Below are positions 13,784-29,635 of a stretch of DNA of 63,591 nucleotides, piece by piece. Position 1 is the first letter of the stretch. The number at the start of each line of letters is the position of its first letter. The DNA is from an uncultured Candidatus Bathyarchaeia archaeon (GTDB taxonomy: Archaea; Thermoproteota; Bathyarchaeia; Bathyarchaeales; Bathyarchaeaceae), in contig CAYGBA010000002.1 of assembly GCA_964347995.1 (NCBI GenBank), positions 1 to 63,591 on the forward strand, read 5' to 3'. The translations under genes were made by a program, and so were the position numbers. The notes under the pieces are model-generated. The model worked only from the letters and a program-made list of their open reading frames with translations, was not told where the DNA came from and made no database searches.

Positions 13784-14009
13784 ACTGTACCTATCTTAGC
13801 TTGGTCCCACATGACGCATACTTTCGCAGAGCTTCTATATCCTAGCGTCTTATCAGTTCGAGACTTCCATTACATGTCTACTGTATGGAAGGTTGATTCA
13901 AGCTTCCCATGCTGGAGCCACATTAGAGGACACAGCAATTTCATACAGTTGAGAGGCGTCATAGTTAATTTTTAAAGTAGATAGGGACACTATATGCTAC
14001 TCTTAAGAG

Positions 14010-14435
14010 GTGAAATGTTTGGTTAAAGTAGACGGCTATGAGGTGCCTGAAGGGCTGCATTACCATAAAGAATTCGGATGGGCACGCATAGAAGATGGAA
14101 AAGCGAGAACAGGCATAACAGACTACGCCCAGAAGCAGCTACGTGAAATCGTATTCGTCGAGCTTCCCAGCGCCGGCGACACAGTGACACAGAATGAACC
14201 CTTCGGAACCGTGGAATCCGTGAAAGCTGTTTCAGACCTTGTTGCACCCGTGAGTGGCACGATAGAGGAGGTCAACGAACAGGTGCAGAACAAGCCAGAG
14301 ACCCTCAATGAGGACCCCTATGAAGAAGGGTGGCTTCTGATAATCTCTCCGTCAAACCTCGACGAGGAACTGAAGGCTCTCATGGACCTTGATAAGAGTG
14401 TGGAGTGGCACAAGAAACTGATCAAGGAAGGCTGA
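14010..14435 (+). CDS. gcvH: GcvH-family lipoyl-carrier protein (copy 1)
   Basis: GITDYAQKQL and the lipoyl-lysine motif VESVKAVSDLVAPVSG. The start is uncertain (GTG 14010 or TTG 14019). No gcvT/gcvP in the window. Confidence 0.85.
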   Translation: MKCLVKVDGYEVPEGLHYHKEFGWARIEDGKARTGITDYAQKQLREIVFVELPSAGDTVTQNEPFGTVESVKAVSDLVAPVSGTIEEVNEQVQNKPETLNEDPYEEGWLLIISPSNLDEELKALMDLDKSVEWHKKLIKEG

Positions 14436-14577
14436 GGATTCCAACAGAATCAGAGCCAAAGGCGCCCACGATGCCTGCTAGACGCAGCGCACGCCAATGT
14501 TGAACTGGCCATGAGGCAGAAACAACCATCGGCGAAATCAACGGTAGAAGCAAACATGAGAACGCGCGCATGTAGTC

Positions 14578-15417
14578 TCAGTATTCCTTAGGCATCATCT
14601 CAAGCTCTTTGTAACTGAAGACTGGGCCGTCTTTGCACACAAACTTGTTTCCTATGTTACACCTTCCACACTTTCCTATACCGCACTTCATCTTCATCTC
14701 GAGGGACAAGAAGACATCCTCGGGGTGGAAGCCCAGTTCGTTGATAACTGGCATCGTAAACTTTATCATTATAGGTGGACCGCAGACAATAGCGATAGCG
14801 TTGTCTGAGCCTGGGCCAACCTCCTTGAGAACGGCCGGGACAAATCCAACCAATCCAGTCCAGCCAGGGACTTCGCGGTCTATGGTCACGTTGAGGTTGA
14901 TGTCATCCCTCTTCCCCCAGGCTTCAAGGTCATGTTTGTAGATGAGTTCACCTGGATTGCGAGCTCCATAGATGACCGTCAAGTCTTTGAATCTATCTCT
15001 GTTGACCTCATGAAGGATGAAATTCGTTAGAGACCTCAGCGTCGTAAAGGCGAAGCCTCCCCCGACAATAACAACATTTCGGCCTTCCATTCTCTCCATC
15101 GGGAAGCCGTTACCGAATGGCCCCCTAACTCCCACGACAGCCCCTTCCTCATAATTGTGCAGGGCAGTGGTGACGACTCCGACCTTTTTCACAGTGAATT
15201 GAATGTAGTCCTCGTCCATGGGGGATGAGGCTATACCAAGGGGGCACTCTCCGGCACCGAAGATAGAGATCTCCGCGAACTGACCACATCTATACTTGAA
15301 TTTCTTCATCGCTCCTGAATCTTGGAAAACGAGCTCAAACGTCTTAATGTCCTTTACCTCGTTTTCTGTTGTGATTTTTCTGATGACCGTGAGGTTTGGT
15401 ATATACGGGTTGCTCAT
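14578..15417 (-). CDS. FAD/NAD(P)-binding [2Fe-2S] oxidoreductase subunit (HydG/AsrB/FlxA-like)
   Basis: Ferredoxin-reductase-type fold (RCGQF, GPFG, VVIVGGGFAFTTL) and a C-terminal cluster CGIGKCGRCNIGNKFVCKDGP, as in the sulfhydrogenase gamma, AsrB and FlxA families. Confidence 0.8.
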   Translation of the reverse strand: MSNPYIPNLTVIRKITTENEVKDIKTFELVFQDSGAMKKFKYRCGQFAEISIFGAGECPLGIASSPMDEDYIQFTVKKVGVVTTALHNYEEGAVVGVRGPFGNGFPMERMEGRNVVIVGGGFAFTTLRSLTNFILHEVNRDRFKDLTVIYGARNPGELIYKHDLEAWGKRDDINLNVTIDREVPGWTGLVGFVPAVLKEVGPGSDNAIAIVCGPPIMIKFTMPVINELGFHPEDVFLSLEMKMKCGIGKCGRCNIGNKFVCKDGPVFSYKELEMMPKEY

Positions 15418-15420
15418 TTT

Positions 15421-16449
15421 CTACTCCAGCTGCCTAGTTGATATTTCCTCAATTATTTCTCTGATGTCGAGGTTGACGGGACACTCTCTGACGCATCTTC
15501 CACAGCCTACGCAGAGGCTTTCGCCGAAGTTCTTGACGAAGTAGTTGAACTTGTGCATGATCCTCTGTCTCAGCCTCTCCTTTCCTGAAGGTCGAGGGTT
15601 GTGTCCAGAACCCTGTAGTGTGAAGTAAGAAAATTGGCAAGAGTCCCAGATTCTGACTCTTTTCCATTTATCTGTCTCTTCATCTACGATATCGAAGCAG
15701 CAGCAGGTGGGACAAAGGTATGTGCACACTCCGCAATCCACGCACTTCTGGTGTGTCCGGTTCCATATGGGATCGTCGAAAATGGTGTCAAGCTTCTCGC
15801 TCACACCTTCAACGGTTACCTTAGACGTGATGGCTTTCTCAGAGTCTTCGGACAGTTTCTTCGCCTTCTCCAAGTCCCCCTCTTCTGCGTCCTTCAACCA
15901 CGGAATTCTCTCAATAAGTTCCTCGCCTCTTTCGGTCACTGTTTCTATGAGGTACTTGTCGCCTACATCCTGTAGAAGCAAGTCCATGCCTTCTTTTCCA
16001 AAAGGACTTCCTCCTATAGATGTGCAGAAACACGTGCTTAAAGGATGGTTGCACGCCAAGCCGATTGTAGTCGTGTTCCCTCTCTTCGCTAAATAGTACG
16101 AATCTTTCTGTTCCCCAGAAGAGAGGAACTTGTCGAGCAAAACGAAGCCTTTGGCATCGCAGGGGCGGACACCCAGTAACACTGTCTTTCTCTGAGGGGT
16201 TGAGGCTTCCTTGATCTCTACACTTTTTTCGGCGGCTTCATACGTGAACAGAATTTCGTTTTGTGGAAAGAAAACCTCCTTGGGAGGTTTCTTTGTGTTC
16301 CGGAAGTATAGGTAAGCTTCGTCTCCAGAGGACACCCTTTCAAAGGAGACGACATTTTCCCTCGTAACTGGGGCAAAAACCTTGTGCTCTGTGGTCAACT
16401 CTTCGATGAGGACGGGTATTTTGCTCTTTTCTACAACCTTCCATCCCAT
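15421..16449 (-). CDS. 4Fe-4S subunit, HydB/AsrA/FlxB-like
   Basis: CVDCGVCTYLCPTCCCFD and CVGCGRCVRECP. I place the start at ATG 16449 (MGWKVVEK), with GGTG 8 nt upstream and 16 nt after the upstream stop. The track start at 16527 overlaps the previous gene. Confidence 0.75.
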   Translation of the reverse strand: MGWKVVEKSKIPVLIEELTTEHKVFAPVTRENVVSFERVSSGDEAYLYFRNTKKPPKEVFFPQNEILFTYEAAEKSVEIKEASTPQRKTVLLGVRPCDAKGFVLLDKFLSSGEQKDSYYLAKRGNTTTIGLACNHPLSTCFCTSIGGSPFGKEGMDLLLQDVGDKYLIETVTERGEELIERIPWLKDAEEGDLEKAKKLSEDSEKAITSKVTVEGVSEKLDTIFDDPIWNRTHQKCVDCGVCTYLCPTCCCFDIVDEETDKWKRVRIWDSCQFSYFTLQGSGHNPRPSGKERLRQRIMHKFNYFVKNFGESLCVGCGRCVRECPVNLDIREIIEEISTRQLE

Positions 16450-16465
16450 TTGAGACACCGCAATA

Positions 16466-17416
16466 TCACTTGATGAACTCCTGAGAGTCATCCGTCTTGA
16501 ACTCTCCCAACGGCGGAATCTCTTCAAGGCTTAGTCCCGCCTCGTAGTTGTACCGTTCCTTCATGATCTTCTCGGTTTTCTTCACGAGTTCCCTCAAGTC
16601 TATGTCCATGGGACAGGCTCGGCTGCAAGCTCCACAGTCAACGCATCTTCCGGCCACATGAAAGGCGCGGACAATGTGGTAGATCATTGTATCTGTTAGG
16701 TCGTTCGTTTTGCCGAACCAAGCGGGCATGGTCTGGTCTACGAAGCACGTCTTGCAGTAGCAGAGGGGACAGACATTTCTGCAAGCGTAGCACCTGACGC
16801 ACTTGCTTAATTCTTCCTTGAAGTGGATCCACCTTTCTTCCGCCGACTTCGACTCTAAGTCTGAAACCCTAGTGAATTCATCGACATCCGTCGTTTCAGG
16901 CACTTTTTCGCCTACAAGCACATCGTAGATAGGGGGATTTCTGTGTCTGCAGGTTAGGCATGAGTCACAAATGAACCCTCTTTTCGGTAGAACAAACTCG
17001 AAACCTTCCCCCTTGACCTTGATTTGTTCGCCCTCAACGGTGGCTTCCAAAGCTTCTTTGCCGTCAAGCTTTGCCTCTACTTTTTTCCTGTCAATGAGTC
17101 CTAGGCAGGGGACGCCTATGATAACTACATTTTCTCTCGAAATCTGTTTTTCAACAGCACAAACAGCTATCGCGCGCGCGTCGCAGCCCTTTGCGACGAC
17201 TCCAATCTTTCCCGCTCTGCCTACTAGGTACTTCGAAAGATTAGCGTCACAACTTACGTTCCAAACGAGCTTTTGAACATCTTCCAATTTGTCCACGAAG
17301 CAGGGAGTGGCGAGAAGCGGCAGTGTTCCTTGCTCGTATCCAATTATAAGGTCGACTTTCTTCTCGCTGAGAAGCTTTTTGGCGACCTCTCTTATTGGAT
17401 TTTCAAGGTCTTCCAT
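16466..17416 (-). CDS. iron-sulfur protein, FlxC-like (two ferredoxin-type 4Fe-4S motifs plus extra Cys cluster)
   Basis: CVRCYACRNVCPLCYCKTC, CVDCGACSRACP and CDSCLTCRH. It sits between the MvhD and HydB-like genes, as in flx clusters. Confidence 0.65.
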   Translation of the reverse strand: MEDLENPIREVAKKLLSEKKVDLIIGYEQGTLPLLATPCFVDKLEDVQKLVWNVSCDANLSKYLVGRAGKIGVVAKGCDARAIAVCAVEKQISRENVVIIGVPCLGLIDRKKVEAKLDGKEALEATVEGEQIKVKGEGFEFVLPKRGFICDSCLTCRHRNPPIYDVLVGEKVPETTDVDEFTRVSDLESKSAEERWIHFKEELSKCVRCYACRNVCPLCYCKTCFVDQTMPAWFGKTNDLTDTMIYHIVRAFHVAGRCVDCGACSRACPMDIDLRELVKKTEKIMKERYNYEAGLSLEEIPPLGEFKTDDSQEFIK

Positions 17417-17422
17417 ATTGCA

Positions 17423-17860
17423 TTACCTCTTCACCAGTCTTTCGGCAGGTCCCAGGGCCTTCACCTTTTCTACCACGTCCCTCACAACATTGGCAAACTT
17501 TTCACCTTCAGCAGCAGAGACCCACGAGAAGTTCAACCTTCCAGACTCAATTCCAAGGTATTCCAGTAGATCCTTCAGGACAGCGAATCTCCTTCTAGCC
17601 ACGAGGTTTCCGCTGATGTAGTGACAGTCGCCAGGATGACATCCAGAGACTAAGACTCCGTCCCATCCGCGCTGCAGGGCTTTCATAATGAAATAGGGGT
17701 TGACTCTTCCAGAGCAGGGGACTCGGACGACCCTTATGTTTGGGGGATACTGCATCCTGCTTATTCCTGCTAGGTCTGCCCCAGCGTAGCTGCACCAGTT
17801 GCATAGGAAAGCTAGTATTCTTGGGTTCCATTCCTTTTCGGCAGGTTTCACTCCAGTCAC
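17423..17860 (-). CDS. mvhD: MvhD/FlxD-type [2Fe-2S] protein (methyl-viologen-reducing hydrogenase delta subunit domain)
   Basis: FLCNWCSYAGADLAG...VVRVPCSGRV...SGCHPGDCHY. I start it at GTG 17860, which overlaps the hdrA stop as GTGA. The 212-aa track ORF extends into hdrA. Confidence 0.85.
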   Translation of the reverse strand: MTGVKPAEKEWNPRILAFLCNWCSYAGADLAGISRMQYPPNIRVVRVPCSGRVNPYFIMKALQRGWDGVLVSGCHPGDCHYISGNLVARRRFAVLKDLLEYLGIESGRLNFSWVSAAEGEKFANVVRDVVEKVKALGPAERLVKR

Positions 17861-20800
17861 CTCAACGCACTTATGATGAGGTTCATCTGCATGTCCGTGA
17901 AGCCCTTGATATCTATTGCCGAGCACCTGCATGTAGCGGCACAGGCTCCGCAACCCTTGCAGAGGGCGGCGTTCACCTTTGCTATTTTCCCCCTCTTTGT
18001 TTCTTCGATCTCTATGGCGTTGTAGGCGCATACTAGCATGCAGAGCTCGCATGCTGTGCATCTGTTCGAATTGACAGTGGCGACGATTCCCTCAGCCTCA
18101 ATAGTATCTTTTGTCAGCAGCGTACACGCTCTAGACACCGCGGCCTTCGCTTGAGAGATGCTCTCTTCTATGGATTTCGGCGAGTGAGCCATGCCACATA
18201 CGAAGATGCCTTCTGTTGCAAAGTCAACGGGCCGAAGCTTGGCGTGCGCCTCTAGGAAGAAGCCATCTTCGTTTATGGGAACCTTCAGCATCTTGGCTAG
18301 AACCTCGTTTTCTTCTGGTGGAACGATAGCTGCGCTTAGAACGATGTGGTCTGCATCTATCATGATGTCCTCTTGGATGGTCGGTTCAAAAACTGATACC
18401 TGCAACACTTCTTTTCCTCCTGACGCGGCCTTAGTAACCCTTGGCTTTTTTTCCTCTTCGTAGCGGATGAAGACCACTCCAGCCTCTCGAGCCCTTCTGT
18501 AGTGTTCTTCCATTAGACCATAGGTTCTGACATCTCGGCAAAGAACGTACACGTTAGCCTCCCGATCTTGCTCTTTTATTTTCAGGGAGTTCTTGACCGC
18601 CTCTCCACAGCACATTCTACTGCAGTATGGATGTTCATCATTCCTAGACCCTACGCACTGGATCATCACCACGTTGCCGAACTTCTCGTTGCCAGCAGTT
18701 GCGATTCTGTTCTCCAATTCCAGCTGCGTAAATACACGAGGATCTTTTCCATAGAGGTACTCGTTCGGATGATATTCTTTGCCTCCGGTAGCCACGATGA
18801 TAACTCCGTGCTCCAACTCTCTTTTCACTTTGCGGCCCGAGTTTAGAGCTACGGTAGTTTTGAAGTTCCCCACATAGCCGGAGACGTTCTCCACATTTGT
18901 GTTGAGGAAGATCTTGATCATCTTGTTTGCGTATACGTTTTCAATCATGGTTCTTAGGTACTCTTGGGTATCATCGTTGTCCAGCGTGTAGTGTATTTTG
19001 CGGAGGAAACCTCCAAGCTCTTTGTTCTTCTCTACTAAATCGATCTCAAAGCCTTGCTCGGCCAAGGCTAGAGCCGCGGTCATTCCTGCCAATCCTCCTC
19101 CGATGACGAGGCCTCGACGGGTGACACCTAGAGAAGGCCTCTCTAGGGGCTCTATCACTCGAGCCTTAGCCACCGCCATTCTCACCAAGTCCTTCGCCTT
19201 TTCGGTAGCTGCCTTGTGATCGTGCATGTGCACCCAAGAACACTGGTCGCGGATATTTGCCATCTCGAAGAGGTACCTGTTCAGTCCAGTTTCCCTTATT
19301 GTTTCTTGGAAGAGGGGTTCGTGGGTTCGGGGTGAACATGAGGCCACTATAACTCTGTTTAGTCCGTGTTCTTCGATTCTATTCTTGATTATCTCTTGAG
19401 TGTCTGAGGAGCATGTGTAGAGGTTGTCGCATGCATGGACGACGTTTGGCAGAGTTTGAGCATACTCCAAAACGCTTTGGACATCAACAACTCCTCCGAT
19501 ATTGATGCCACAGTGACAAATGAAGACGCCTATTCTGGGTGGCTGACCCCTAACATCCAGCTCTTTTGGATACTCCTTTTTCTTGACTAGGGTTCCTCGG
19601 GCGGAGGATAGCAATTCGCCCACGCTGGAAGCGGCAGCGCTGGCTTGTGTAACGGTTTCGGGAATATCCTTGGGTGAGGAGAACATGCCGCAGACGAAAA
19701 CTCCTGGTCTAGAGGTTTCTAGGGGATGAAACGCTTGGGTTTTCGAGAAGCCGTGCTCGTTCAGCTCCACATCGAGGTTTTTAGCCAGCTTCTTAGCGTT
19801 CTCGGATGGTGTGAAGCCAATCGAAAGGACAACTAGGTCGAACTCTTCCTCCAGGAGTCTTCCATCTTCTGCATCGTATCTGATTCGCAGGTTCTTTGTC
19901 TTGGGTATCTCCTCTACTCCGGACACCCTGCACCTGACAAACCTAACTCCATATTCTTCCTTAGCCCTCTCAATATACTTGTCGAAATCCTTCCCATAGG
20001 CACGCATGTCTATATAGAAGATGGTAGGTTCAATCTGGCTCATGTGCTCTCGGGCTATAACTGCCTCCTTTGTGGAGTACATGCAACAAACCGAAGAGCA
20101 GTAGCCGCTTCCACATGTTACATCTCTAGAGCCGACGCACTGTATGAAAGCGATCTTTCTCGGGATATCTCCGTCTGAGGGCCTCTGCACACGCCCCGTG
20201 AAAGGTCCGGAAGCGCTCAAGATGCGCTCGAACTCGATGCTCGTGACCACGTTGGTGTATCTTCCGTAACCGTACTCGCTCTTCAGTTTGGCGTTAAACT
20301 CCTCAACGCCGGGGGCGAGAATCACAGCGCCAACGTTCAGCCTTATTTCTTTCTCTTGATCTGTGTAGTTTATGGCGTCGGCCAGGCAAATGTTCTTGCA
20401 GAGTCCACAGCCCACACACTTTTCTCTGGCGATCATGTATACCAAGGGAACGGCTTGAGGGTAGTTGATGTGAATTGCTGTTCTCTCGCTTAGGCCTTTG
20501 TTGAAGGTATCTATGGCGTCGACTGGACAGAATTTGGCGCACAGCCCACATCCTGTACACTTTTCGATGTCAACGTATCTGGGGCGTTGTTTCAATGAGA
20601 CGATGAAGTTGCCTTCCTCTCCAGAAATCTCGGTAACTTCGGAACATGTCAAAGCCTCAACATTCAGGTGTCTTCCGCACTCCACGAGTTTTGGGGATAG
20701 AATGCACATGGAGCAGTCGTTCGTTGGAAAGGTTTTGTCTAGCTGTGCCATGACCCCGCCTATAGCCGGAGAGTTATCCACCACGTAAACCTTGAAACCT

Positions 20801-20904
20801 GACTCCGCCAGGTCGAGCGCAGCCTGTATTCCTCCAATTCCCCCACCCACAACCAACACTGAACCGACTTTGCCTGATTCAGAAACCGGGTTTTGCGAGT
20901 TCAT
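17857..20904 (-). CDS. hdrA: double-module HdrA-like flavoprotein (1015 aa; a fusion collinear with the two separate genes at 23398-24690 and 21717-23390)
   Basis: N module: VVGGGIGGIQAALDLA, FPTNDCSMCILSPK. C module: IGVFICHCGINIGG, VIGGGLAGMTAALALA and the C-terminal CTACELC...CKGCGACAATC. It aligns end to end with the 430-aa plus 557-aa neighbours. Confidence 0.85.
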   Translation of the reverse strand: MNSQNPVSESGKVGSVLVVGGGIGGIQAALDLAESGFKVYVVDNSPAIGGVMAQLDKTFPTNDCSMCILSPKLVECGRHLNVEALTCSEVTEISGEEGNFIVSLKQRPRYVDIEKCTGCGLCAKFCPVDAIDTFNKGLSERTAIHINYPQAVPLVYMIAREKCVGCGLCKNICLADAINYTDQEKEIRLNVGAVILAPGVEEFNAKLKSEYGYGRYTNVVTSIEFERILSASGPFTGRVQRPSDGDIPRKIAFIQCVGSRDVTCGSGYCSSVCCMYSTKEAVIAREHMSQIEPTIFYIDMRAYGKDFDKYIERAKEEYGVRFVRCRVSGVEEIPKTKNLRIRYDAEDGRLLEEEFDLVVLSIGFTPSENAKKLAKNLDVELNEHGFSKTQAFHPLETSRPGVFVCGMFSSPKDIPETVTQASAAASSVGELLSSARGTLVKKKEYPKELDVRGQPPRIGVFICHCGINIGGVVDVQSVLEYAQTLPNVVHACDNLYTCSSDTQEIIKNRIEEHGLNRVIVASCSPRTHEPLFQETIRETGLNRYLFEMANIRDQCSWVHMHDHKAATEKAKDLVRMAVAKARVIEPLERPSLGVTRRGLVIGGGLAGMTAALALAEQGFEIDLVEKNKELGGFLRKIHYTLDNDDTQEYLRTMIENVYANKMIKIFLNTNVENVSGYVGNFKTTVALNSGRKVKRELEHGVIIVATGGKEYHPNEYLYGKDPRVFTQLELENRIATAGNEKFGNVVMIQCVGSRNDEHPYCSRMCCGEAVKNSLKIKEQDREANVYVLCRDVRTYGLMEEHYRRAREAGVVFIRYEEEKKPRVTKAASGGKEVLQVSVFEPTIQEDIMIDADHIVLSAAIVPPEENEVLAKMLKVPINEDGFFLEAHAKLRPVDFATEGIFVCGMAHSPKSIEESISQAKAAVSRACTLLTKDTIEAEGIVATVNSNRCTACELCMLVCAYNAIEIEETKRGKIAKVNAALCKGCGACAATCRCSAIDIKGFTDMQMNLIISALR

Positions 20905-20937
20905 GTTGTTTATCCTCCATTTTGTTCGTTCGGTTCC

Positions 20938-21720
20938 TCACCCTTCAGCTCTTCGATACTTGGGGCTGTTTTCTTCGATTCCCACGACGGAGACTAGTCC
21001 GTCGCGCTCGAGAGAGACTATGTTTCTCAGCACTTCCCTTGGTGAAGCTTCCACTTTCTGGGCTATCTCTTTGACAGAGAGAGCGTCTTCTCTAATTGAG
21101 AGGAGAATCCTTCTTTTTGCAAACTCTTTTTCGACGGTTTGGTGCATCAGGTGGTCGAACTCTTCTTGTGGCACCTTCTCCCCGAAGACGTTCTTGTCTT
21201 CTACCAGCGCTCTTTCTCTGCCCATAAGCCATCTAATCCTTTCCAGGGCGAGAGCTTCCTTGGCCGCAACCAAGCGCGTCCTCAACTGTGGTGGCTCCAG
21301 GGTTGTTTCTTTGCCAAGCTGACCTAGTTTTCTTATTCTTTCTGTGAAATCTTTCACCAGCGTTGCAAAACGTTCACCCTCCGCCGCGGACACCCAATCA
21401 ACCAACAGTCGATCAGAAGACAAACCTGTGTTCTTCAGGACCTTTTTCGTCGTCTTCATCCTTCTTTCCGCGTAGTAGTTTCCGGTCATGTAGTGACAAG
21501 TTCCTAGGTGGCAGCCCAGGACCATGACGCCGTCTAGCCCTTGAATGAAAGCTTCAAGAATGATCGTTGGGTCAACCCTTGCTGAACACATCACCCTAAT
21601 GATCTTCACGTTAGGAGGGTACTGCATACGACTGACCCCCGCCAAATCCGCACTGGCGTAGGAGCACCAGTTGCAGAGAAAACCAACAATGTCTGGTTCA
21701 AAGCTTTTTTGAGAAGTCAA
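20938..21720 (-). CDS. mvhD: MvhD-domain protein with a ~125-aa C-terminal extension ending in a winged-helix-like motif
   Basis: FLCNWCSYASADLAG...IIRVMCSARV...LGCHLGTCHY, then ...ALSVKEIAQKVEASPREVLRNIVSLERDGLVSVVG. Probable TTG start at 21720, overlapping the hdrA stop as TTGA. Confidence 0.75.
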   Translation of the reverse strand: MTSQKSFEPDIVGFLCNWCSYASADLAGVSRMQYPPNVKIIRVMCSARVDPTIILEAFIQGLDGVMVLGCHLGTCHYMTGNYYAERRMKTTKKVLKNTGLSSDRLLVDWVSAAEGERFATLVKDFTERIRKLGQLGKETTLEPPQLRTRLVAAKEALALERIRWLMGRERALVEDKNVFGEKVPQEEFDHLMHQTVEKEFAKRRILLSIREDALSVKEIAQKVEASPREVLRNIVSLERDGLVSVVGIEENSPKYRRAEG

Positions 21721-23390
21721 AGCTTCACCTCCGCTAGGGCAATTACCTGTGCAAGAAGTTGCTCGTCTGTAAAGTGTCTCATGGTGATCGCCCTCTGGGG
21801 GCAGCCGGCACCACATGCCCCACAACCCTTACAGGAGGCAGCTATTATCCTGGCTTTCCTTCCCTTCTCGGTTTCTTCGACTTGGATCGCTTTGAAGGGA
21901 CAGGTCAGCTCGCACAAGCCGCACCCTGAGCATTCGTCTTCATCAATCACTGGGATCAGGGGTTCGGTTTTCACACGTCCAACTGACATAGGTATAGACG
22001 CTCGAGAAGCTGCGCCATACGCTTGAAAAATACTCTCGCCGATATTGGCTGGCCAGTGGGCGCAGCCACACACATATATGCCGTCTGTTGCGAAGTCAAC
22101 GGGGCGAAGTTTCACGTGGGCCTCTAGGAAGAAGCCGTTCTCATCCACTGGCACTTTCAGTTTTTGCGCTAGATCGGCGGAGTCAGGGTGGGCGACCATT
22201 GGGGTGGACAGCACGACAAGGTCGCACGGCAGGGTCAGTTCTTCGCCCAAGAACTCATCATAAACTCTCACCGATCCGTCCTCGACGACTGGTTCCCTTT
22301 CTGCCGAATATTTTATGAACGTTATGCCAGTTTCTCTCGCTTTTCCATAATAGTCCTCATAGATTGTCCCCTGAGCCACCATATCCTTGTAGAGTAGGAA
22401 AACCTGGGCATCTGGTTTGGTTCCCATAATCAGCATGGCGTTTTTTAGGGCAGTTGGACAGCAAACCTTAGAGCAGTAGGTTCTCTTTTTGCTTCTAGAC
22501 CCTACACATTGAATCATCACAATCGTTTCAGCGGTGAGCCTTCCTTCTTTAAGCATTTGTTCCAGCTCCATCTGGGTGACGACAGTCTCTCCATTGTAGC
22601 CATACATGCCTACAGGCTTGAACGTCTCGGCGCCTGTTGCCACTATTATCACCCCGGCCCTGAATAACCTCTCTTTTTCTCCCTGCGTTACCGTGACGTC
22701 ATAGTTACCAACAAAACCCTCAACTGCTTCAACTGCGGAAGATGTCAAGATTTCGATCTTCGGGTTCTTCTCAATCTCCTTGATCTTCAATTGGACCAAC
22801 CTTGAGGCTGCTTCGTTAGTTGGGTAGAGTTTGTAGAGGCGACTTAGAGTTCCGCCTAACTGGCTCTCCTTTTCTACCAGCTTCACCTCAAAGCCTCGGT
22901 TGGCTAGGCTGAGCGCACAGGTCATTCCCGCGATTCCTCCGCCAATCACCAAAGCACAGGGGTTGACCTCAACCTCGGTCTCTTCCAGGGGCTCCAACAA
23001 CGCAGCTTTTGCGACTCCCATCCTTATGAGAGTCTTCGCCTTTTCGGTTGCTCTCTCCCTTTCTTGCATGTGAACCCAAGAGCACTGATCCCTTATGTTG
23101 ACGAACTGAAACAAGTAGGGGTTAAGCCCTGCCTCGTTGCAGGTTGACCTGAACAGGGGCTCGTGGGTTCTGGGGGTGCAGGAGGCAACAACTACACGGT
23201 TCAGCTTGTTTTCAGTCACAGCGTTCTTTATCTCTGTCAATCCAGCCTCGGAGCAGGTATACTGGTTGTCCTTTGCGAAGACAACGTGTGGCAAGTTCAA
23301 GGCATATTTGGCGAGACTCGGGACGTCCAGAAAACCTCCTATGTTTGTGCCGCAGTGACAGACGAAAACACCGACTCTCACTTCATCCAA
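21717..23390 (-). CDS. hdrA: HdrA-like flavoprotein, classical module (557 aa)
   Basis: VGVFVCHCGTNIGG, VIGGGIAGMTCALSLA and the C-terminal ferredoxin motifs CSGCGLCELTCP / CKGCGACGAGCP. TTG start at 23390 with GGTGA 7 nt upstream. Confidence 0.85.
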   Translation of the reverse strand: MDEVRVGVFVCHCGTNIGGFLDVPSLAKYALNLPHVVFAKDNQYTCSEAGLTEIKNAVTENKLNRVVVASCTPRTHEPLFRSTCNEAGLNPYLFQFVNIRDQCSWVHMQERERATEKAKTLIRMGVAKAALLEPLEETEVEVNPCALVIGGGIAGMTCALSLANRGFEVKLVEKESQLGGTLSRLYKLYPTNEAASRLVQLKIKEIEKNPKIEILTSSAVEAVEGFVGNYDVTVTQGEKERLFRAGVIIVATGAETFKPVGMYGYNGETVVTQMELEQMLKEGRLTAETIVMIQCVGSRSKKRTYCSKVCCPTALKNAMLIMGTKPDAQVFLLYKDMVAQGTIYEDYYGKARETGITFIKYSAEREPVVEDGSVRVYDEFLGEELTLPCDLVVLSTPMVAHPDSADLAQKLKVPVDENGFFLEAHVKLRPVDFATDGIYVCGCAHWPANIGESIFQAYGAASRASIPMSVGRVKTEPLIPVIDEDECSGCGLCELTCPFKAIQVEETEKGRKARIIAASCKGCGACGAGCPQRAITMRHFTDEQLLAQVIALAEVKL

Positions 23391-23397
23391 GTCCTTG

Positions 23398-24690
23398 TCA
23401 CCTCATTACCGTTTCTGCAGCTCTCTCGGCGGCTCCACTCGCTTGGGCTACGGACTCTGGTATATCAGTTGGTTCTCGGCAGCAACCGCACACAAATATT
23501 CCCGGCCTTGTCGCGTCCAGTGGGTTGAGGGGATCTGTCTTGAAGAAGTTATATTCGTCAAGCTCGACGTCCAAGACTCTTGCCAGTTCTTTCACGCCTC
23601 TCCTCGGCATCAGGCTTGTGGCCAAAACCGCTAGATCAGCGATCATTTCCTTTGTTTTGGAGCTTTGGGATTCTTCATACCAAACTATGGGATTCTCGTC
23701 ATGATCTTCGGTGATCTTGGCTACTCTTCCTCTGATATACGATATGTTGTACTCTTGCTCTCCTCGTGCCACGTACTCTTGAAAGCCTTTGCCCGCGGCT
23801 CTGAGGTCCATGTAAAATATGCAAGATTTCACCTTGGGGCTGTGTTCGTAGGCAAGCATAGCCTCCTTGGTTGCGTGCATACAGCAGACGGATGAGCAGT
23901 AACGGTTGTTGTTGAAGTCTCTAGACCCGACGCACTGGACGAAAGCTATTTTCTCTGCAGGCTTGTTGTCTGAAGGCCTCAGGAGATGTCCTCCGGTGGG
24001 TCCTGAAGCGCACATCAGTCTCTCGTATTCCAAAGATACGATGACATTCCTGTACCTTTTGTACCCATACTGGGGGATTCCAGACGGATCGTAGGGGTCA
24101 TAACCAGTAGCGACAACAATGGCGCCAACGTGCAACATTACGTCTGTGTCTTTCTGCTCAAAATCTATTGCCTCTCTGGTGCAGAATTTTTCGCAAATTC
24201 TACACACGCCTCGCGTTAGGTAGAGGCAGTTTTCCCTGTCAAGGGTCATGACCGCTGGAACACCTTGCAGGTAGTATGGATATATGGCCTCCCTCTTTCT
24301 CAGTTTCATATCAAACTCGTCAGGCACCTTTACGGGGCACTTTGCAGCGCAATCCCCACAGTTGACACACTTCTCTTCGTCAACAAATCTGGCATACTTG
24401 CGTAACTTCACTGAGAAATTTCCTATCTGTCCCGTTACTTCTTTGACTTCTGATAGTGTGTAGAGGGTGATGTTTGGGTGTCTGAAGCAATCAGCGAGTT
24501 TTGGGGATAGTATGCATATGGAGCAATCGTTTGTGGGAAAAGTTTTGTCGAGTTGAGCCATTCTTCCTCCTATACTCGGCTTTCTCTCAACCAGATGTAC
24601 CGTTATTCCCATATCTCCGAGGTCGAGGGCTGCCTGAATCCCCGCTATTCCACCACCAATGACCAGAACCGATTTAGGCTTTTCCTTCAA
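23398..24690 (-). CDS. hdrA: HdrA-like flavoprotein, N-type module (430 aa)
   Basis: VIGGGIAGIQAALDLG, FPTNDCSICILSPK and an inserted ferredoxin CVNCGDCAAKCP. It is collinear with the first ~440 aa of the 1015-aa fusion. Confidence 0.8.
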   Translation of the reverse strand: MKEKPKSVLVIGGGIAGIQAALDLGDMGITVHLVERKPSIGGRMAQLDKTFPTNDCSICILSPKLADCFRHPNITLYTLSEVKEVTGQIGNFSVKLRKYARFVDEEKCVNCGDCAAKCPVKVPDEFDMKLRKREAIYPYYLQGVPAVMTLDRENCLYLTRGVCRICEKFCTREAIDFEQKDTDVMLHVGAIVVATGYDPYDPSGIPQYGYKRYRNVIVSLEYERLMCASGPTGGHLLRPSDNKPAEKIAFVQCVGSRDFNNNRYCSSVCCMHATKEAMLAYEHSPKVKSCIFYMDLRAAGKGFQEYVARGEQEYNISYIRGRVAKITEDHDENPIVWYEESQSSKTKEMIADLAVLATSLMPRRGVKELARVLDVELDEYNFFKTDPLNPLDATRPGIFVCGCCREPTDIPESVAQASGAAERAAETVMR

Positions 24691-25825
24691 GGATCTGTCC
24701 TCCAGCCAACTCCGAGAGCCTCTCCTTTGCTCTCATCTTCTTTCTTCTAGAAAAGGAGACAATCTTTGCCAGCATCTTCGTCTTCTCTAGCTTACTCTCC
24801 TCAGCATCTCTGAAAGCTCTCTCTTGAATGTAGCCCTTACGAAGGGCTCCGTCGAGGACTGATGCGCCCATCTTTGTCCTCAAAAGGGTTGTAGTGTATC
24901 CATCTGGCGAACCAAGTCCTCCGACCGAAATGTCTGCGTACTCGTTACTGAAGTCGTGACACGTCAAACATGCTGGGCGAGCAACTTCGTGCACCTCTTC
25001 AAGCGGAACATGAATTGTCACGCCCTTGGTGAGCGTAATTATAAAGTCGTCCTTGATGTTCAGTTTTACAACATCCTCCAGATTGACATCGAGTTTCTTC
25101 TCCAACCGCTCCCTTGCCACGTCATCAAAAGAGAAATTCTCTATGCAAAACAGCCCTATCGCATATTTTATGAGGTGAGCTGGGAGTATCCCGAGGCATT
25201 GCATCTTTCGGATCGCGTTGATCTGGCAGGGAGTTCCAACCACCGCTATGTCCCGCAAATATTTTTTCTCTAGGCTCTTTATAGTGGACAGGATCGGAGT
25301 GTAGGTAGTGTATTTTCCTCCCAACTCTTCTAAATGGAGGGATCCTGAGAACGTGGAGCCTGTTGCTTCTATGAGTTCCTCAGGAGTTCTGGCGATTGTT
25401 GCCTTTCTGGCGAAGCGCCCGATCTTCTTTGAGACTACGGCGCCATTTATCAAGTTGCGATCCAGCAAGTATAGGAGGAGGGAGGTCACCACACCTCCGT
25501 CTGTGCAAATCTCCTTTACCTCCTTATTCGTCGTCTGAGCGGAGGTTATCCTCTGAAAATCGCCCATGGGCGGCTTCCAACCAAACTTTTCTTGAAGCTC
25601 TGCGTCTAACGTATCTGTTTGGGGGCATATGAGGTAGCAGATTCCGCATTTTAGACAGTTATCTTCATTGATGTATCGTGGTAGTTCGTTCTTGCCCATC
25701 TCTAGGGCGTTGAGTTCTCCCGCTGAGCAAAAGGAGATGCAGCCACCACACTTACCGCATATTCCTTTCTCAACAACTTCTATGGCTAGGTCCTTGAATG
25801 ACTTAATCTCCTCCATAGCAACCAA
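24674..25825 (-). CDS. FrhB-family protein (coenzyme F420 hydrogenase/dehydrogenase beta-like) with N-terminal 2x[4Fe-4S] ferredoxin
   Basis: CGKCGGCISFC and CLKCGICYLICP are followed by FrhB-type regions, including AVVGTPCQINAIRKMQ and CHDFSNEYADISVGG. Confidence 0.75.
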   Translation of the reverse strand: MVAMEEIKSFKDLAIEVVEKGICGKCGGCISFCSAGELNALEMGKNELPRYINEDNCLKCGICYLICPQTDTLDAELQEKFGWKPPMGDFQRITSAQTTNKEVKEICTDGGVVTSLLLYLLDRNLINGAVVSKKIGRFARKATIARTPEELIEATGSTFSGSLHLEELGGKYTTYTPILSTIKSLEKKYLRDIAVVGTPCQINAIRKMQCLGILPAHLIKYAIGLFCIENFSFDDVARERLEKKLDVNLEDVVKLNIKDDFIITLTKGVTIHVPLEEVHEVARPACLTCHDFSNEYADISVGGLGSPDGYTTTLLRTKMGASVLDGALRKGYIQERAFRDAEESKLEKTKMLAKIVSFSRRKKMRAKERLSELAGGQILEGKA

Positions 25826-25960
25826 ACCTTGGACCGTTACTATAGTTTTACACCATTATTTAGGAATTTCTTGTATTCAAATTGGAAAACAACAAATATA
25901 AAGAAGGCGTGTGACCCTATAGTTTCTCGCGAAGCAGAAAAGTCTAGGAGAGATTCTAGG
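25826..25960. promoter_or_regulatory. divergent intergenic region between the frhB-like operon and the CoADR-like gene
   Basis: 135 bp, AT-rich, with TATA-like runs (CTATAGTTTTA, AAATATAAAG). This applies only if the + gene starts at TTG 25961. No transcription data. Confidence 0.3.
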
Positions 25961-27313: not shown

Positions 27314-27379
27314 GAACCTTCATTAGGCGCTGATCTCCCGCGCATGAGGAGATGTTGTGGACTGCTGAAGGTTAAATGA

Positions 27380-27850
27380 ATGAAAGTTGACTCATACGAC
27401 ATTCCTGAAAATTGCTACTATATTAAAGAACACGAGTGGATCTTAATAGAAGACACTGACACCGCAAGAATCGGCATCACAGACTATGCTCAGAAAGCGT
27501 TGAGGGAGATCACATACTTTTACGCAGGGAAGAGAGGCGCTGAAATCAAACGGATGGAAACAATGTGCAAAATAGAGTCAGTAAAAAGTGTTGCTGAGAT
27601 ATTGAGTCCCCTCACTGGCGTGGTTCTTAGGTTTAATAACGGACTATTCGACCAACCTAGTATCATAAATAATGACCCTTATGGCAAGGGTTGGATAACA
27701 ATCATCCGCCCCACAAACCTTGACAAGGAGCTAGAAAAACTACTAAAACCAGAACTCTATGCGGAGCATATCAAAGAACTCACCAAAAGCGATGAAACTT
27801 TACTGATTCACAGATGGAAAAAGGGAATAGAGGAAAAAACCCGCGAATAG
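27380..27850 (+). CDS. gcvH: GcvH-family lipoyl-carrier protein (copy 2, with C-terminal extension)
   Basis: GITDYAQKAL and KIESVKSVAEILSPLTG retain the lipoyl-lysine. Its stop is only 11 nt from the convergent hdrB stop. Confidence 0.8.
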   Translation: MKVDSYDIPENCYYIKEHEWILIEDTDTARIGITDYAQKALREITYFYAGKRGAEIKRMETMCKIESVKSVAEILSPLTGVVLRFNNGLFDQPSIINNDPYGKGWITIIRPTNLDKELEKLLKPELYAEHIKELTKSDETLLIHRWKKGIEEKTRE

Positions 27851-27861
27851 AAAGGCTTAAA

Positions 27862-28737
27862 CTAAACACCAAGCCTGCCTAGTAAATCGGACGTTTTCAC
27901 TCGGTTCATGTCCAACCCTAACCCTTTTGGGTCCATTCCAAGAGCAAGTCCAAGGACTTGTGGGTAAAATAGTACAGGCAGGTTATAGGCGGTATTGAAC
28001 CTCCTCTGTATCACCCTCTGATTTCTATCGTACATAGAGCCGCACAGTGGGCACATCAGAACCATCGCGTCGGCTTCCATTGCCTTGACATGGTCAAGTT
28101 TCCTTTGAGCCATTGCCATCGCAATCTTATCGTCGACGTCCAGAATTACACCGCCACAACACTGCGTCTTATCCTCGTATTCAATAGTCTCCGCGCCAAG
28201 TGCAGAGACAAGTTCATCCAGGGTCCTCGGAAACTCGGGATCCTCGAATCTGTCAAAAACATCTGACGGCTTAATATAGTGGCATCCGTAATGCGAGGCT
28301 AACTTGAGTCCCTCCAAGCTGTGTTTGACCTGGCTCTTTATCTTTTCAGGACCAACGTCTTCGTATAGAATTCGCACGAAGTGCCTAGCTTTGACATTTC
28401 CCTTGTAGGCACGACCTATTTTCTGCAGTTTCTCGTTTGCGTTTTCCCTCAATTCATTATTGTGCATCAGCTCTTTACTGGCTTCTGCTAGCATGGAGGC
28501 GCAACCTGTACAAATCGTACATATGTCTAGGCCCATGGCTTCGGCAACGCTTAGGTCTCTAGCAGCAAGAAGCAAAGCTGTTTCTTGGTCTACAGATCTT
28601 ATTGGGAAGCCACAACAGGCGAAGCCGTCTGTGTCAATGAGTTCCACTCCAAGTTTTTCGGCAACCTTCCTCGCTGAAAGCTCATATTGCCTGGCCATTA
28701 GAGGTGCGAGGCATCCTAAGAAAAGGGCGTACTTCAC
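27862..28737 (-). CDS. hdrB: heterodisulfide reductase subunit B-like (two CCG domains)
   Basis: MKYALFLGC...FACCGFP and TQCCGG...CPLCG. GTG start overlaps the hdrC stop as GTGA. Confidence 0.85.
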   Translation of the reverse strand: MKYALFLGCLAPLMARQYELSARKVAEKLGVELIDTDGFACCGFPIRSVDQETALLLAARDLSVAEAMGLDICTICTGCASMLAEASKELMHNNELRENANEKLQKIGRAYKGNVKARHFVRILYEDVGPEKIKSQVKHSLEGLKLASHYGCHYIKPSDVFDRFEDPEFPRTLDELVSALGAETIEYEDKTQCCGGVILDVDDKIAMAMAQRKLDHVKAMEADAMVLMCPLCGSMYDRNQRVIQRRFNTAYNLPVLFYPQVLGLALGMDPKGLGLDMNRVKTSDLLGRLGV

Positions 28738-29252
28738 CTTGTGTCCCTTCCTTCGGCCCCTAGCGGTTTGAAGCCTGCCTGCTCAAGGAGCTCCTGAACC
28801 TCCTTGTTTTCAGATGGAATTTGTGGCAATCCAAGTTCTTCTCGTTTTGTGTTGTCGAAACGGCTCAGAGGGTACAGTGTGCCGTGTGTCGATATGATCT
28901 CCATTCGCTTGGCAAATGAGTTGTGAATGCGGCCCTCCTTGACTGCCAGATTTTTCAAAGCGGTCATAAATTCGGGTATCCTAACATCCTGTGGGCACCG
29001 CTCCTGACAAGTGTAACACTCAGAACACAGCCATATGAAGTCGCTTGAAAGGACCCTTTCCCTCATACCTAGCACGGTCATCCGTATGATCCTTCTGGGG
29101 TTATACTTCTCTTCTATCTCCCTAACAGGGCATCCGACGTTGCATGTTCCACACTGGAAACATCTCATTATGTTCTGCCCTCCAGGAATCTTTGTGACTT
29201 CATATTTGAACTTAGGGTCAAGTTTGGTGATCACCAAAGCAGTTCTCTCCAC
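28734..29252 (-). CDS. hdrC: heterodisulfide reductase subunit C-like (2x[4Fe-4S])
   Basis: CFQCGTCNVGCP and CSECYTCQERCP; the size is typical of HdrC. Confidence 0.85.
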   Translation of the reverse strand: MERTALVITKLDPKFKYEVTKIPGGQNIMRCFQCGTCNVGCPVREIEEKYNPRRIIRMTVLGMRERVLSSDFIWLCSECYTCQERCPQDVRIPEFMTALKNLAVKEGRIHNSFAKRMEIISTHGTLYPLSRFDNTKREELGLPQIPSENKEVQELLEQAGFKPLGAEGRDTR

Positions 29253-29398
29253 ACTAATTTTAAATGATCAAGCTTTGAAACTGAATATGGCATCCAAATC
29301 CTTCATATCAAGGGTAATATAAATCCATATAACTCAAATTAAAGTATTCGCTGACTGAACAAAGCTTATCCAATCTATGTATTATCAAAGGCAGACAT

Positions 29399-29635
29399 TC
29401 ACTTGCTCTCAGTCACTATCATGGTTAGGGTCGATCGGATTTTGTCTGATCCTCGCACATGTGAGGTAATGATTTCCTTAAGTTTGTCCATAGTGTTGGC
29501 TTCAACTTTTACCAAGATGTCGTAAACGCCGTAGACCGTATATGCTTCTTCCACCGCATGGACTTCTCTCAGTGCCCCTAGAACTTCGCTCTCCGCCCCT
29601 ATCTCTGTGTTAACTAATACGAACGCTATGGGCAT
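29399..29635 (-). CDS. stand-alone Lrp/AsnC ligand-binding (RAM) domain protein
   Basis: 78 aa, AFVLVNTEIGAESEVLGALREVHAVEEAYTVYGVYDILVKVEA. This matches the effector domain without an HTH. Confidence 0.65.
   Translation of the reverse strand: MPIAFVLVNTEIGAESEVLGALREVHAVEEAYTVYGVYDILVKVEANTMDKLKEIITSHVRGSDKIRSTLTMIVTESK

Follow-up and report, generated by a model that had tools for sequence, protein, structure and literature searches.

A gene cluster at positions 14,010 to 29,635 of contig CAYGBA010000002.1 (assembly GCA_964347995.1), from an uncultured Candidatus Bathyarchaeia archaeon, probably encodes a soluble, hydrogenase-independent Flx-Hdr system for flavin-based electron bifurcation or confurcation. 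Judged by its genes, this system would be of the HdrABC type, would belong to a non-methanogenic Bathyarchaeion, and has a lipoyl group on a GcvH protein as its candidate disulfide. We analysed positions 1 to 63,591 of the contig (hereafter, the window). An initial annotation, made from the sequence alone, had described the cluster as an Hdr/Flx-type soluble redox locus without hydrogenase or methanogenesis genes. That description stands: all the genes it named are present where it placed them, with strong Pfam and NCBIfam matches, and the iron-sulfur (FeS), CCG, [2Fe-2S], lipoyl-lysine and active-site cysteine motifs are all intact. A Pfam scan of 48 open reading frames (ORFs) of the window, covering most ORFs of at least 120 amino acids, gave no match to hydrogenase, mcr, or coenzyme M (CoM) or coenzyme B (CoB) genes. 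Neither DsrE, TusA nor rhodanese was matched among the scanned ORFs, and no dsrC was found in the window.

The architecture of the HdrA proteins carries much of this reading. All three matched the HdrA and HdrA2 models with E-values from 1e-159 to 0. Using as reference the sequence of a solved HdrA (5ODC_A), reconstructed from printed alignments, we aligned the 430-residue protein, the 557-residue protein and both halves of the 1015-residue protein. The 430-residue HdrA and residues 1-447 of the fused protein span only positions ~143-567 of 5ODC_A. Both keep Cys194 and Cys197 and all eight cysteines of the inserted ferredoxin domain, and in both the FeS domain at the N-terminus and the ferredoxin domain at the C-terminus are missing. 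The 557-residue HdrA and residues 448-1015 of the fused protein possess what these two lack, namely the N-terminal domain cysteines 11, 13, 46, 71 and 103 and a C-terminal ferredoxin domain with eight cysteines. They have no inserted ferredoxin domain, and their Cys194 and Cys197 are replaced. All four flavin adenine dinucleotide (FAD) cores retain C386, C399, C403 and C404, which bind the core [4Fe-4S] cluster, as well as E356 and K409 (5ODC_A numbering). The full accessory set, consisting of the N-terminal FeS domain, the inserted ferredoxin domain, the C-terminal one and Cys197, thus occurs in no single FAD core but is complete in each pair or fusion.

By these alignments, the 430- and 557-residue proteins complement each other as the halves of a single asymmetric HdrA, and in the 1015-residue protein the same pair is fused. 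Because of this, the locus can be read as encoding two pseudo-dimeric HdrA units, unit 1 being split and unit 2 fused, each trailed by its own MvhD. The initial annotation had correctly counted four flavin domains of the HdrA type, along with two MvhD and a single HdrBC. However, it took the four domains for independent modules, where we find two asymmetric units with complementary domain loss. Its label of a classical HdrA does not fit the 557-residue protein, which is without the inserted ferredoxin domain and Cys194/Cys197. Nor is the 430-residue protein an HdrA N-type module, as it consists of the FAD core and the inserted ferredoxin domain and has neither the N-terminal nor the C-terminal domain. 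Complementarity of Cys197 and the N-terminal domain has been described in tandem and fused HdrA of anaerobic methanotrophic archaea (ANME), where it was read as a heterodimer (Chadwick et al., PMC9012536), and the fused double form has been named type II HdrA (PMC12054007). The locus shows the marks of type II or heterodimeric HdrA, as its thioredoxin-reductase-type FAD cores are paired in one protein or in tandem genes and, within a pair, one core is without the N-terminal domain and the other without Cys197. None of the solved structures is of this asymmetric type, the nearest being methanogen HdrA.

How widespread this arrangement is was determined with a scan for fused HdrA in one genome per GTDB species. 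It identified more than 590 relatives, and the best 80 loci were mapped with the window proteins as queries (L numbers denote these and other related contigs). The order HdrA unit, MvhD with a winged helix (MvhD-wHTH), fused HdrA, MvhD was found in at least 34 of the 80 loci, and several more loci end at contig edges. Hosts of this core order include Bathyarchaeia, Asgard archaea, Thermoplasmatota, Dehalococcoidia, Clostridia, Deltaproteobacteria and WOR-3. Downstream of the second MvhD, 21 of the 80 loci carry FlxC-FlxB-FlxA, among them loci of Desulfotomaculum-group and deltaproteobacterial genomes. Another 24 carry HdrC-HdrB followed by the small and large subunits of a [NiFe]-hydrogenase (Pfam check). 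As FlxCBA or a hydrogenase can occupy the same position, the donor module is exchangeable. Three loci (L004, L007 and L011, from two Promethearchaeota and one unclassified archaeon) possess the full composition of the window in a single operon, FrhB included, in the order HdrC-HdrB-HdrA430-HdrA557-MvhD-wHTH-HdrA(fused)-MvhD-FlxC-FlxB-FlxA-FrhB. FlxABCD-HdrABC had been listed among Asgard features before (Imachi et al., PMC7015854).

The two units seem to have a long separate history. Core halves were compared by distance, and for 88 of the 106 sequences the nearest neighbour came from a different locus and had an MvhD of the same type downstream. Units 1 and 2 of the window lie at a distance of 0.52 from each other, whereas each lies at 0.31-0.40 from its counterparts in other phyla. 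The distance between units exceeds that across phyla, which suggests that they are old, separately conserved paralogues. The initial annotation had considered the composition richer than the canonical sets. It does exceed the textbook sets, but it is not unusual, given the frequency of the two-unit core and the three loci with the full set. On this evidence the cluster is a recurrent, biochemically uncharacterised variant of Flx-Hdr and Mvh-Hdr loci and not a unique assembly. In four of the mapped loci from the Desulfotomaculum group (L060, L061, L066, L069), the MvhD after the fused HdrA is split in two ORFs of ~65-75 residues, a pattern that would be expected of an in-frame UGA selenocysteine codon.

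Both MvhD proteins would serve as connectors to their HdrA units. The shorter one has five conserved cysteines. For the longer one, the C-terminal winged helix that was initially annotated scores below the Pfam threshold in the window protein itself (HTH_20, 23 bits against a cut-off of 27), yet two other lines of evidence back it. Many close MvhD-wHTH homologues have HTH_20 matches, and the AlphaFold model (mean predicted local distance difference test score 72, and 81-91 across the last 60 residues) resembles MvhD/ElpC in its N-terminal part (E 2e-10) and ArsR/SmtB winged-helix proteins in its C-terminal part, the latter weakly but consistently.

Of the two input modules proposed in the initial annotation, the HydG/FlxA-like NAD(P)H module is present. 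The FlxA-like protein matches HydG-type models (E 2e-66) and carries a C-x4-C-x2-C-x7-C motif at residue 245, while the FlxB-like protein matches a ShyB-type model (E 1e-58) and has two CxxCxxCxxxC motifs; both score below the equivalog cut-offs. The FlxC-like protein also contains two CxxCxxCxxxC motifs, and among solved structures it is closest to 7bkb_E, 9t1s_M and 8rvu_E, which are Hdr-bound FdhB/ElpB subunits. It aligns with FdhB residues 29-158 and 279-379, and the ~120 residues missing in the middle may include the flavin-binding part. FlxA, FlxB, FlxC and an MvhD-like FlxD stand together beside hdrA, which is the composition of FlxABCD-HdrABC. In the solved Fdh-Hdr and Elp-Hdr complexes, the FdhB/ElpB subunit hands electrons to MvhD (PMC12350162). 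The similarity of FlxC to this subunit therefore suggests, by homology, a wire from FlxA through FlxB, FlxC and MvhD to HdrA.

A member of the FrhB family forms the other module. It combines an N-terminal 2x[4Fe-4S] domain with an FrhB core, and its best solved relatives are 8rja_E (E 2.6e-51, full length) and 8riu_B, followed by FrhB and Fsr. It probably couples F420, but the initial label of an F420-type module was drawn from homology. Because the protein scores below the NCBIfam cut-offs (183.6 bits for the FrhB equivalog TIGR03289, with a cut-off of 331.5), F420 use is a reasonable inference only. On the acceptor side, the C-x(n)-CC-x(n)-CxxC motif is present in HdrB in two complete copies, one at residues 9-79 and the other at 152-232, while HdrC has two CxxCxxCxxxC motifs.

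Gene starts were chosen by a GGAGG/GAGGTGA-type ribosome-binding motif upstream or by fit to homologue length. The longest-ORF starts of four genes (MvhD-wHTH, MvhD, FlxB-like and CoADR-like) lie too far upstream, and we adopted shortened coordinates. Before shortening, the longest ORFs were 15421-16527 for FlxB-like, 25829-27313 for CoADR-like and 24674-25825 for FrhB-like; the MvhD gene starts with GTG and has GAGGTGA upstream. Nine minus-strand genes from FrhB (ATG 25816) to FlxA (stop 14578) are spaced by -17 to +33 nucleotides (nt), and several stops and starts overlap. With this tight spacing they fit one operon, as initially annotated, but HdrC-HdrB is a minus-strand unit of its own, convergent with CoADR-GcvH2. 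TATA-like elements facing both directions were read by eye in the gap between the FrhB and CoADR-like genes, which may be a promoter region. Similarly, a TATA-like element and a ribosome-binding motif were read by eye upstream of GcvH1. A scan for RNA elements gave none within the cluster.

Features of the Flx-Hdr cluster and its immediate neighbours, in window coordinates
Feature	Position	Strand	Evidence and remarks
GcvH1, H-type lipoyl carrier	14010..14435	+	likely start TTG 14019, 138 aa; GCV_H E 1.5e-37
FlxA/HydG/AsrB-like, NAD(P)H- and FAD-binding, [2Fe-2S]	14578..15417	-	NAD_binding_1, FAD_binding_6, DHODB_Fe-S_bind
FlxB/HydB/ShyB/AsrA-like FeS subunit, 342 aa	15421..16449	-	ATG 16449; Fer4_22 E 2.8e-32
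FlxC-like FeS connector, 316 aa, shortened FdhB/ElpB homologue	16466..17416	-	7bkb_E E 5.5e-27
MvhD, 142 aa, putative [2Fe-2S] connector of HdrA unit 2	17423..17851	-	FlpD E 4e-56
Fused HdrA, 1015 aa, unit 2	17857..20904	-	HdrA2 model 1020 bits; 5odc_A E 8.5e-209
MvhD with C-terminal winged helix (MvhD-wHTH), 260 aa, putative connector of unit 1	20938..21720	-	FlpD E 1.4e-54
HdrA, 557 aa, arm half of unit 1	21717..23390	-	HdrA/HdrA2 models
HdrA, 430 aa, core half of unit 1	23398..24690	-	HdrA/HdrA2 models
FrhB-family flavoprotein, N-terminal 2x[4Fe-4S], putative F420 module	24674..25816	-	FrhB_FdhB_N E 2.5e-15, FrhB_FdhB_C E 1.1e-39
Divergent intergenic region, 144 bp, AT-rich	25817..25960	.	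between FrhB and CoADR-like genes
CoADR/NOX/persulfide-reductase-like flavoprotein, 450 aa	25961..27313	+	Pyr_redox_2 E 4e-60, Pyr_redox_dim
GcvH2, second lipoyl-carrier paralogue, 156 aa	27380..27850	+	GCV_H E 4e-34
HdrB, two CCG domains, disulfide-reducing subunit	27862..28737	-	CCG E 3.6e-29; 5odc_B E 1e-75 full length
HdrC, 2x[4Fe-4S]	28734..29252	-	start uncertain, GTG 29252 or ATG 29168; TIGR03290 E 1e-34
Stand-alone Lrp/AsnC ligand-binding (RAM) protein, 78 aa	29399..29635	-	AsnC_trans_reg E 2e-12

The GcvH and coenzyme A disulfide reductase (CoADR)-like genes had been regarded as mere separators of the Hdr genes. Instead, they are the best lead to the substrate. Both GcvH proteins exceed the NCBIfam gcvH equivalog cut-off of 115.85 bits (135.6 for GcvH1, 118.7 for GcvH2), and their motifs VESVKA and IESVKS both hold the lipoyl lysine. 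The Pfam scan of ORFs gave no GcvT or GcvP in the 63.6-kb window. The flavoprotein between FrhB and GcvH2 reaches 334 bits against the NCBIfam CoADR model (cut-off 579 bits). It has the features of the CoADR/NADH oxidase/persulfide reductase group, namely Pyr_redox_2, a dimerisation domain and a single redox cysteine near residue 43, here Cys44 in YSRCGIPY; its best solved relatives are 6pfz, 6ruz, 4fx9 and 8a56. CoADR and GcvH2 are neighbours in every close relative whose contig spans the position, and in most of these (dozens of contigs) they lie between FrhB and HdrB. The layout FrhB / CoADR-GcvH2 / HdrBC is retained even where the HdrA copies are only 54-61% identical (L083, L084, L087). 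Those three loci contain an additional gene between FrhB and HdrA (e.g. L087:7128-8624), encoding a 498-residue protein with 2x[4Fe-4S] and pyridine-nucleotide-disulfide-oxidoreductase domains. On a 1.18-Mb Bathyarchaeota chromosome (L147; CP070826.1, 7424-10687), a shortened FrhB, the CoADR-like gene, GcvH2 and a 67-residue HdrB remnant are found without HdrA genes. This locus is a decayed version of the cluster.

Lipoyl genes also accompany Hdr genes in other lineages. In L148, the lipoate-protein ligase gene LplA lies immediately 5' of HdrC in a same-strand LplA-HdrC-HdrB series. A locus of Thermoplasmatota (L022) contains an HdrD-like gene, LplA, HdrC, HdrB, fused HdrA, MvhD-wHTH and a second fused HdrA, with a gap of 2 nt between LplA and HdrC. 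In Thermoplasmatales (L006:612-14984), one strand encodes GcvH, HydB-like and HydG-like proteins, the small and large subunits of a [NiFe]-hydrogenase and fumarase alpha and beta, followed by HdrD-like, HdrC, HdrB, a PDDEXK nuclease, fused HdrA, MvhD, an OsmC-like protein and LplA. The GcvH of this cluster bears the lipoyl lysine, and GcvH and OsmC-LplA lie at opposite ends; its hydrogenase would be group-3b-like, judged by the HydB/HydG-like subunits. A canonical lipoamide dehydrogenase (Lpd; GGTCLNKGCIP) is encoded 174 nt beyond FlxA in a promethearchaeotal locus (L005), and LplA lies ~1 kb beyond an HdrA-MvhD fusion in L151. In Culexarchaeia, GcvH was found within an HdrBC-hydrogenase cluster, and its authors proposed it as the disulfide carrier of HdrB (PMC9723716).

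Not every lipoyl-like gene near Hdr qualified. The LplA near the Hdr cluster of L046 was dropped, as it lies in an S12/S7/aEF1A/GTPase block found in four other Bathyarchaeia contexts as well. The ~200-residue "GcvH" genes in other Bathyarchaeia Hdr operons have lost the lysine (ETWMFMF for ESVKAVS) and were rejected as lipoyl carriers. Their N-terminal region, ribbon-helix-helix-like by eye, is fused to a GcvH-like domain, and they are probably regulators on a GcvH fold. Such a gene directly precedes the 557-type HdrA in L008, L010, L013, L016, L017, L019, L020, L026, L031, L032 and L046 (L046:7804-8394). Radical-SAM genes near Hdr in L009 and L065 were set aside as candidate lipoyl synthases; they are only 24-30% identical to the SPASM-type gene of the window. 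Protein searches with GcvH2 and MvhD-wHTH returned matches that were all at least 73% identical, and all but two of the matches to LplA were Bathyarchaeia proteins of 55-63% identity. The sampling of GcvH and CoADR contexts is accordingly shallow, the wider contexts coming from eight neighbourhoods only. By reasoning rather than computation, a handful of lipoyl genes in a genome of a few thousand genes would by chance place one or two near 80 loci of ~20 genes. The in-operon cases lie above this rough estimate in a small, non-independent sample, and the link between lipoyl and the Hdr cluster is suggestive.

We propose the following mechanism on the basis of homology. FlxA would oxidise NAD(P)H, and electrons would pass through FlxB, the FdhB/ElpB-like FlxC and MvhD to the flavin of unit 2, as in Mvh-Hdr, Fdh-Hdr and Elp-Hdr. 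The FrhB-like flavoprotein may swap hydride with F420, feeding or draining the other arm. By sequence, the two halves of each unit contribute different parts: Cys197 and the FAD core with the inserted ferredoxin domain come from one, the N-terminal FeS and C-terminal ferredoxin domains from the other. From the flavin, the first electron would reach ferredoxin via the inserted ferredoxin domain; the second would travel via HdrC and arrive at the two noncubane clusters in HdrB, where the disulfide would be reduced. The CoM-CoB heterodisulfide (CoM-S-S-CoB) is unlikely to be that disulfide. The best candidate in the locus would be lipoyl on GcvH2 or GcvH1, coupled to NAD(P)H through the CoADR-like flavoprotein. 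The system may also run mainly in the confurcating direction, from reduced ferredoxin and dithiol to NAD(P)H or F420H2, and this would be the likelier direction if lipoyl is the partner because its potential is low. A more general and doubtful idea, which we raise tentatively, concerns non-methanogenic archaea that have neither CoM nor CoB: there, a lipoyl group on a GcvH paralogue would take the role of "heterodisulfide" for bifurcating HdrABC, and HdrB would reduce or oxidise this lipoyl-GcvH. A CoADR-like protein (Lpd in Asgard archaea) would then link this pool to NAD(P)H, and Flx/FrhB-HdrA-MvhD would interconvert ferredoxin, NAD(P)H and F420 without a free thiol cofactor.

Several findings weigh against parts of this proposal, and some of them concern the lipoyl link. 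Lipoyl, with a textbook potential of about -290 mV, is a poor high-potential acceptor for bifurcation driven by NAD(P)H. In most Bathyarchaeia, LplA lies in a housekeeping context among ribosomal-protein genes. Some contigs carry the CoADR-GcvH pair with no Hdr genes or with decayed ones (L108-L111, L116, L147, L150). The chance is a little short of even that the GcvH and CoADR-like genes are unrelated neighbours, belonging to a lipoate-assembly, glycine-cleavage or thiol-antioxidant island, and that HdrBC acts on a small-molecule disulfide, a polysulfide, a persulfide or a DsrC-like protein. One case is a distant Bathyarchaeion (L150, 7001-12413), where LplA, two LipS1/S2-like radical-SAM genes and a 122-residue gene are followed by orthologues of GcvH1 (72% identical) and the flavoprotein (54%), then GAPDH and PGK. 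There the pair belongs to a lipoate-assembly island, with no Hdr genes within 7 kb. As the two orthologues are adjacent in L150, the window looks like this island interrupted by the 11.4-kb Flx/Hdr operon between GcvH1 and the flavoprotein, with GcvH2 and HdrCB beyond. The radical-SAM genes LipS1/S2 encode a lipoyl synthase, for which a FAD-dependent NAD(P)H oxidoreductase has been proposed as feeder (PMC10332631). The scores of both GcvH above the canonical cut-off fit such an origin, as does the kinship of the flavoprotein with NADH oxidases, CoA-disulfide reductases and a CoA-persulfide reductase, and OsmC adjoins LplA in L006. However, chance neighbourhood explains less well why lipoyl genes lie in or beside Hdr operons of several independent lineages (L022, L006, L005, L148 and Culexarchaeia), why the FrhB / CoADR-GcvH2 / HdrBC layout is kept despite divergent HdrA, and why GcvT and GcvP are not found in the window.

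Other doubts concern how the modules are connected. The FrhB-like protein is without the C-terminal FdhB-type domain that docks on MvhD, and in Asgard archaea its gene follows FlxA directly instead of preceding HdrA. The hydrogenase-type relatives have two HdrA units but a single donor, which suits one supercomplex as well as two parallel ones. The gene order and the distinct, conserved paralogy of the two units would, like these observations, fit one supercomplex with two bifurcation stages in series. Its units would be bridged by MvhD-wHTH, with FlxABC and FrhB on a single donor arm and the second unit shifting the potential further. A parallel with stages in series has also been proposed for class II benzoyl-CoA reductase, and the two-stage idea was raised for clusters of type II plus type I HdrA (PMC12054007). 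We consider such an assembly unlikely here, since each unit has a full set of accessory domains and its own MvhD and could act alone, since many loci have only a single fused HdrA, MvhD and FlxCBA (L040, L051, L052), and since no structural or biochemical precedent is known. HdrCB lies in a transcription unit apart from the HdrA operon, convergent with CoADR-GcvH2, which fits a further possibility. HdrA-MvhD-Flx-FrhB could be an Nfn-like ferredoxin/NAD(P)H/F420 oxidoreductase, with HdrCB serving in a separate reaction with CoADR and GcvH. Consistent with this, HdrBC is not within reach in several HdrA-MvhD-Flx loci (L051, L029), and HdrA paralogues outnumber HdrBC in ANME (PMC9012536). It is nevertheless improbable. 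The core-cluster cysteines kept by all four FAD cores bind a cluster that relays electrons toward HdrC in solved complexes (PMC12350162), and in most related loci HdrCB lies on the same strand beside the HdrA genes. By textbook values, moreover, the potentials of F420 and NAD(P) are too close for bifurcation without a high-potential acceptor. We favour the Flx-Hdr system with HdrBC as its putative disulfide-reducing end.

The Bathyarchaeia origin of the window is indicated by its fused HdrA, 89% identical to the copy in a metagenome-assembled genome of Bathyarchaeia (L003). At 83-95% identity, this gene set is also present on more than 50 contigs from sediment metagenomes. The window also has archaeal traits, as two of three tRNA matches, 155 nt (9124-9278, minus strand) and 117 nt (9902-10018, plus strand) in length, exceed the size of a normal tRNA and so bear introns, and an archaemetzincin gene lies nearby. 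Neither intron-bearing tRNA match was reported by ARAGORN. The G+C content is 49-51% over the Flx/Hdr operon (14001-24000) against 43-47% in the flanks, which could stem from transfer into the genome or from the many FeS proteins encoded there. Bacterial copies of the fused HdrA (62-63%) and other Bathyarchaeia copies (61%) resemble that of the window to about the same degree. Next to HdrC, the 78-residue RAM protein also adjoins HdrC in several relatives, in varying orientation; it is an uncertain member of the system. Elsewhere in the window, a radical-SAM/SPASM gene (33153-36283, minus strand), NirJ/AhbD-like below cut-offs, overlaps the end of a 592-residue ORF without a family match. Between 48000 and 52000, GC skew reaches 0.37, and overlapping ORFs on both strands, including glycine-rich frames, are without a family match. 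Imperfect tandem repeats of 69-72 bp (a 141-bp period was also scored) occupy 62752-63359, near the window end.

Few energy-metabolism genes are as widespread as those for HdrABC-MvhD in uncultured anaerobes, for example in Bathyarchaeia, Asgard archaea, Thermoplasmatota, Dehalococcoidia and acetogens. To our knowledge, nobody knows which disulfide HdrABC-MvhD reduces outside methanogens, or in which direction it runs. The locus is a compact, hydrogenase-free form of the common two-unit architecture, with hydride-carrier modules replacing the hydrogenase. If the lipoyl link is true, recombinant proteins would allow a direct test of the substrate, and redox-balance models of abundant sediment archaea and Asgard archaea would change. 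If it is false, the locus is another member of a known, uncharacterised cluster family.

Among the closest known systems is FlxABCD-HdrABC from Desulfovibrio vulgaris (Ramos et al. 2015, through citations in PMC12054007 and PMC7015854). As far as it is described in these citing papers, it shares with the present locus HdrABC, a subunit of the MvhD type, a pair of FeS subunits and an NAD(P)H flavoprotein that resembles HydG/AsrB, and neither has a hydrogenase; this comparison is of gene sets and not of sequences. The order MvhD-FlxC-FlxB-FlxA beside HdrA, found in the 21 related loci mentioned above, is a further Flx-Hdr likeness. Within the same limits of description, the present locus differs in its two HdrA units, a second MvhD with a winged helix, an extra FrhB-family gene, HdrCB on a separate transcript, embedded GcvH and CoADR-like genes, an archaeal host and a window without dsrC. 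The methanogen complexes MvhAGD-HdrABC (5ODC), FdhAB-MvhD-HdrABC (7BKB) and ElpABC-HdrABC (8RVU) share homologues of HdrA, HdrB, HdrC and MvhD (E 1e-75 to 1e-209) with all cofactor ligands kept, and FlxC resembles the MvhD-contacting FdhB/ElpB of the latter two. Their HdrA is a symmetric homodimer of full-length subunits, in contrast to the asymmetric pseudo-dimers proposed here. Furthermore, the donor here would be an NAD(P)H module, where those complexes use a hydrogenase, Fdh or Elp, and the window has no CoM/CoB context.

Like the tandem and fused HdrA of ANME (PMC9012536), one copy here has the N-terminal domain without Cys197 and the other keeps Cys197, both with K409 and E356, and MvhD and a gene of the FrhB/FdhB family again accompany them. 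In the HdrA3/4 fusion of ANME in that study, it is the N-terminal half that bears the N-terminal domain, so the order is reversed here. The partners in this locus are FlxABC-like, whereas those in ANME include a molybdopterin-type FdhA relative, and the host here is no methane metaboliser.

In published descriptions, the sHdr systems combine a short HdrA, which has no ferredoxin domains, with two HdrBC sets and sulfur transferases, and they have no MvhD; a solved example of their HdrA, 6TJR, has 349 residues. What the locus shares with the sulfur-oxidising sHdr-LbpA system (PMC6067878, PMC10332631) is the genomic link of HdrBC to GcvH-like lipoyl carriers, with lipoate-protein ligase in relatives; here the lysine-bearing GcvH2 ends 11 nt from the HdrB stop. 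Membership in sHdr was rejected on account of the large bifurcation-type HdrA, the two MvhD and the single HdrBC, and because none of the scanned ORFs matched a sulfur transferase. In its architecture the FrhB-like protein agrees with the F420-reducing subunits on Fwd and CODH of "Ca. Ethanoperedens" (8RJA, 8RIU; PMC11493965), but it is encoded beside HdrA and not beside Fwd or CODH, and F420 use is putative here. Finally, MetFV-HdrABC-MvhD of the non-methanogen Moorella thermoacetica, as far as it is described in PMC9012536, also has MvhD, HdrBC and a fused double HdrA whose halves have lost complementary domains. In the present locus, Flx- and FrhB-type modules take the place of MetF and MetV.

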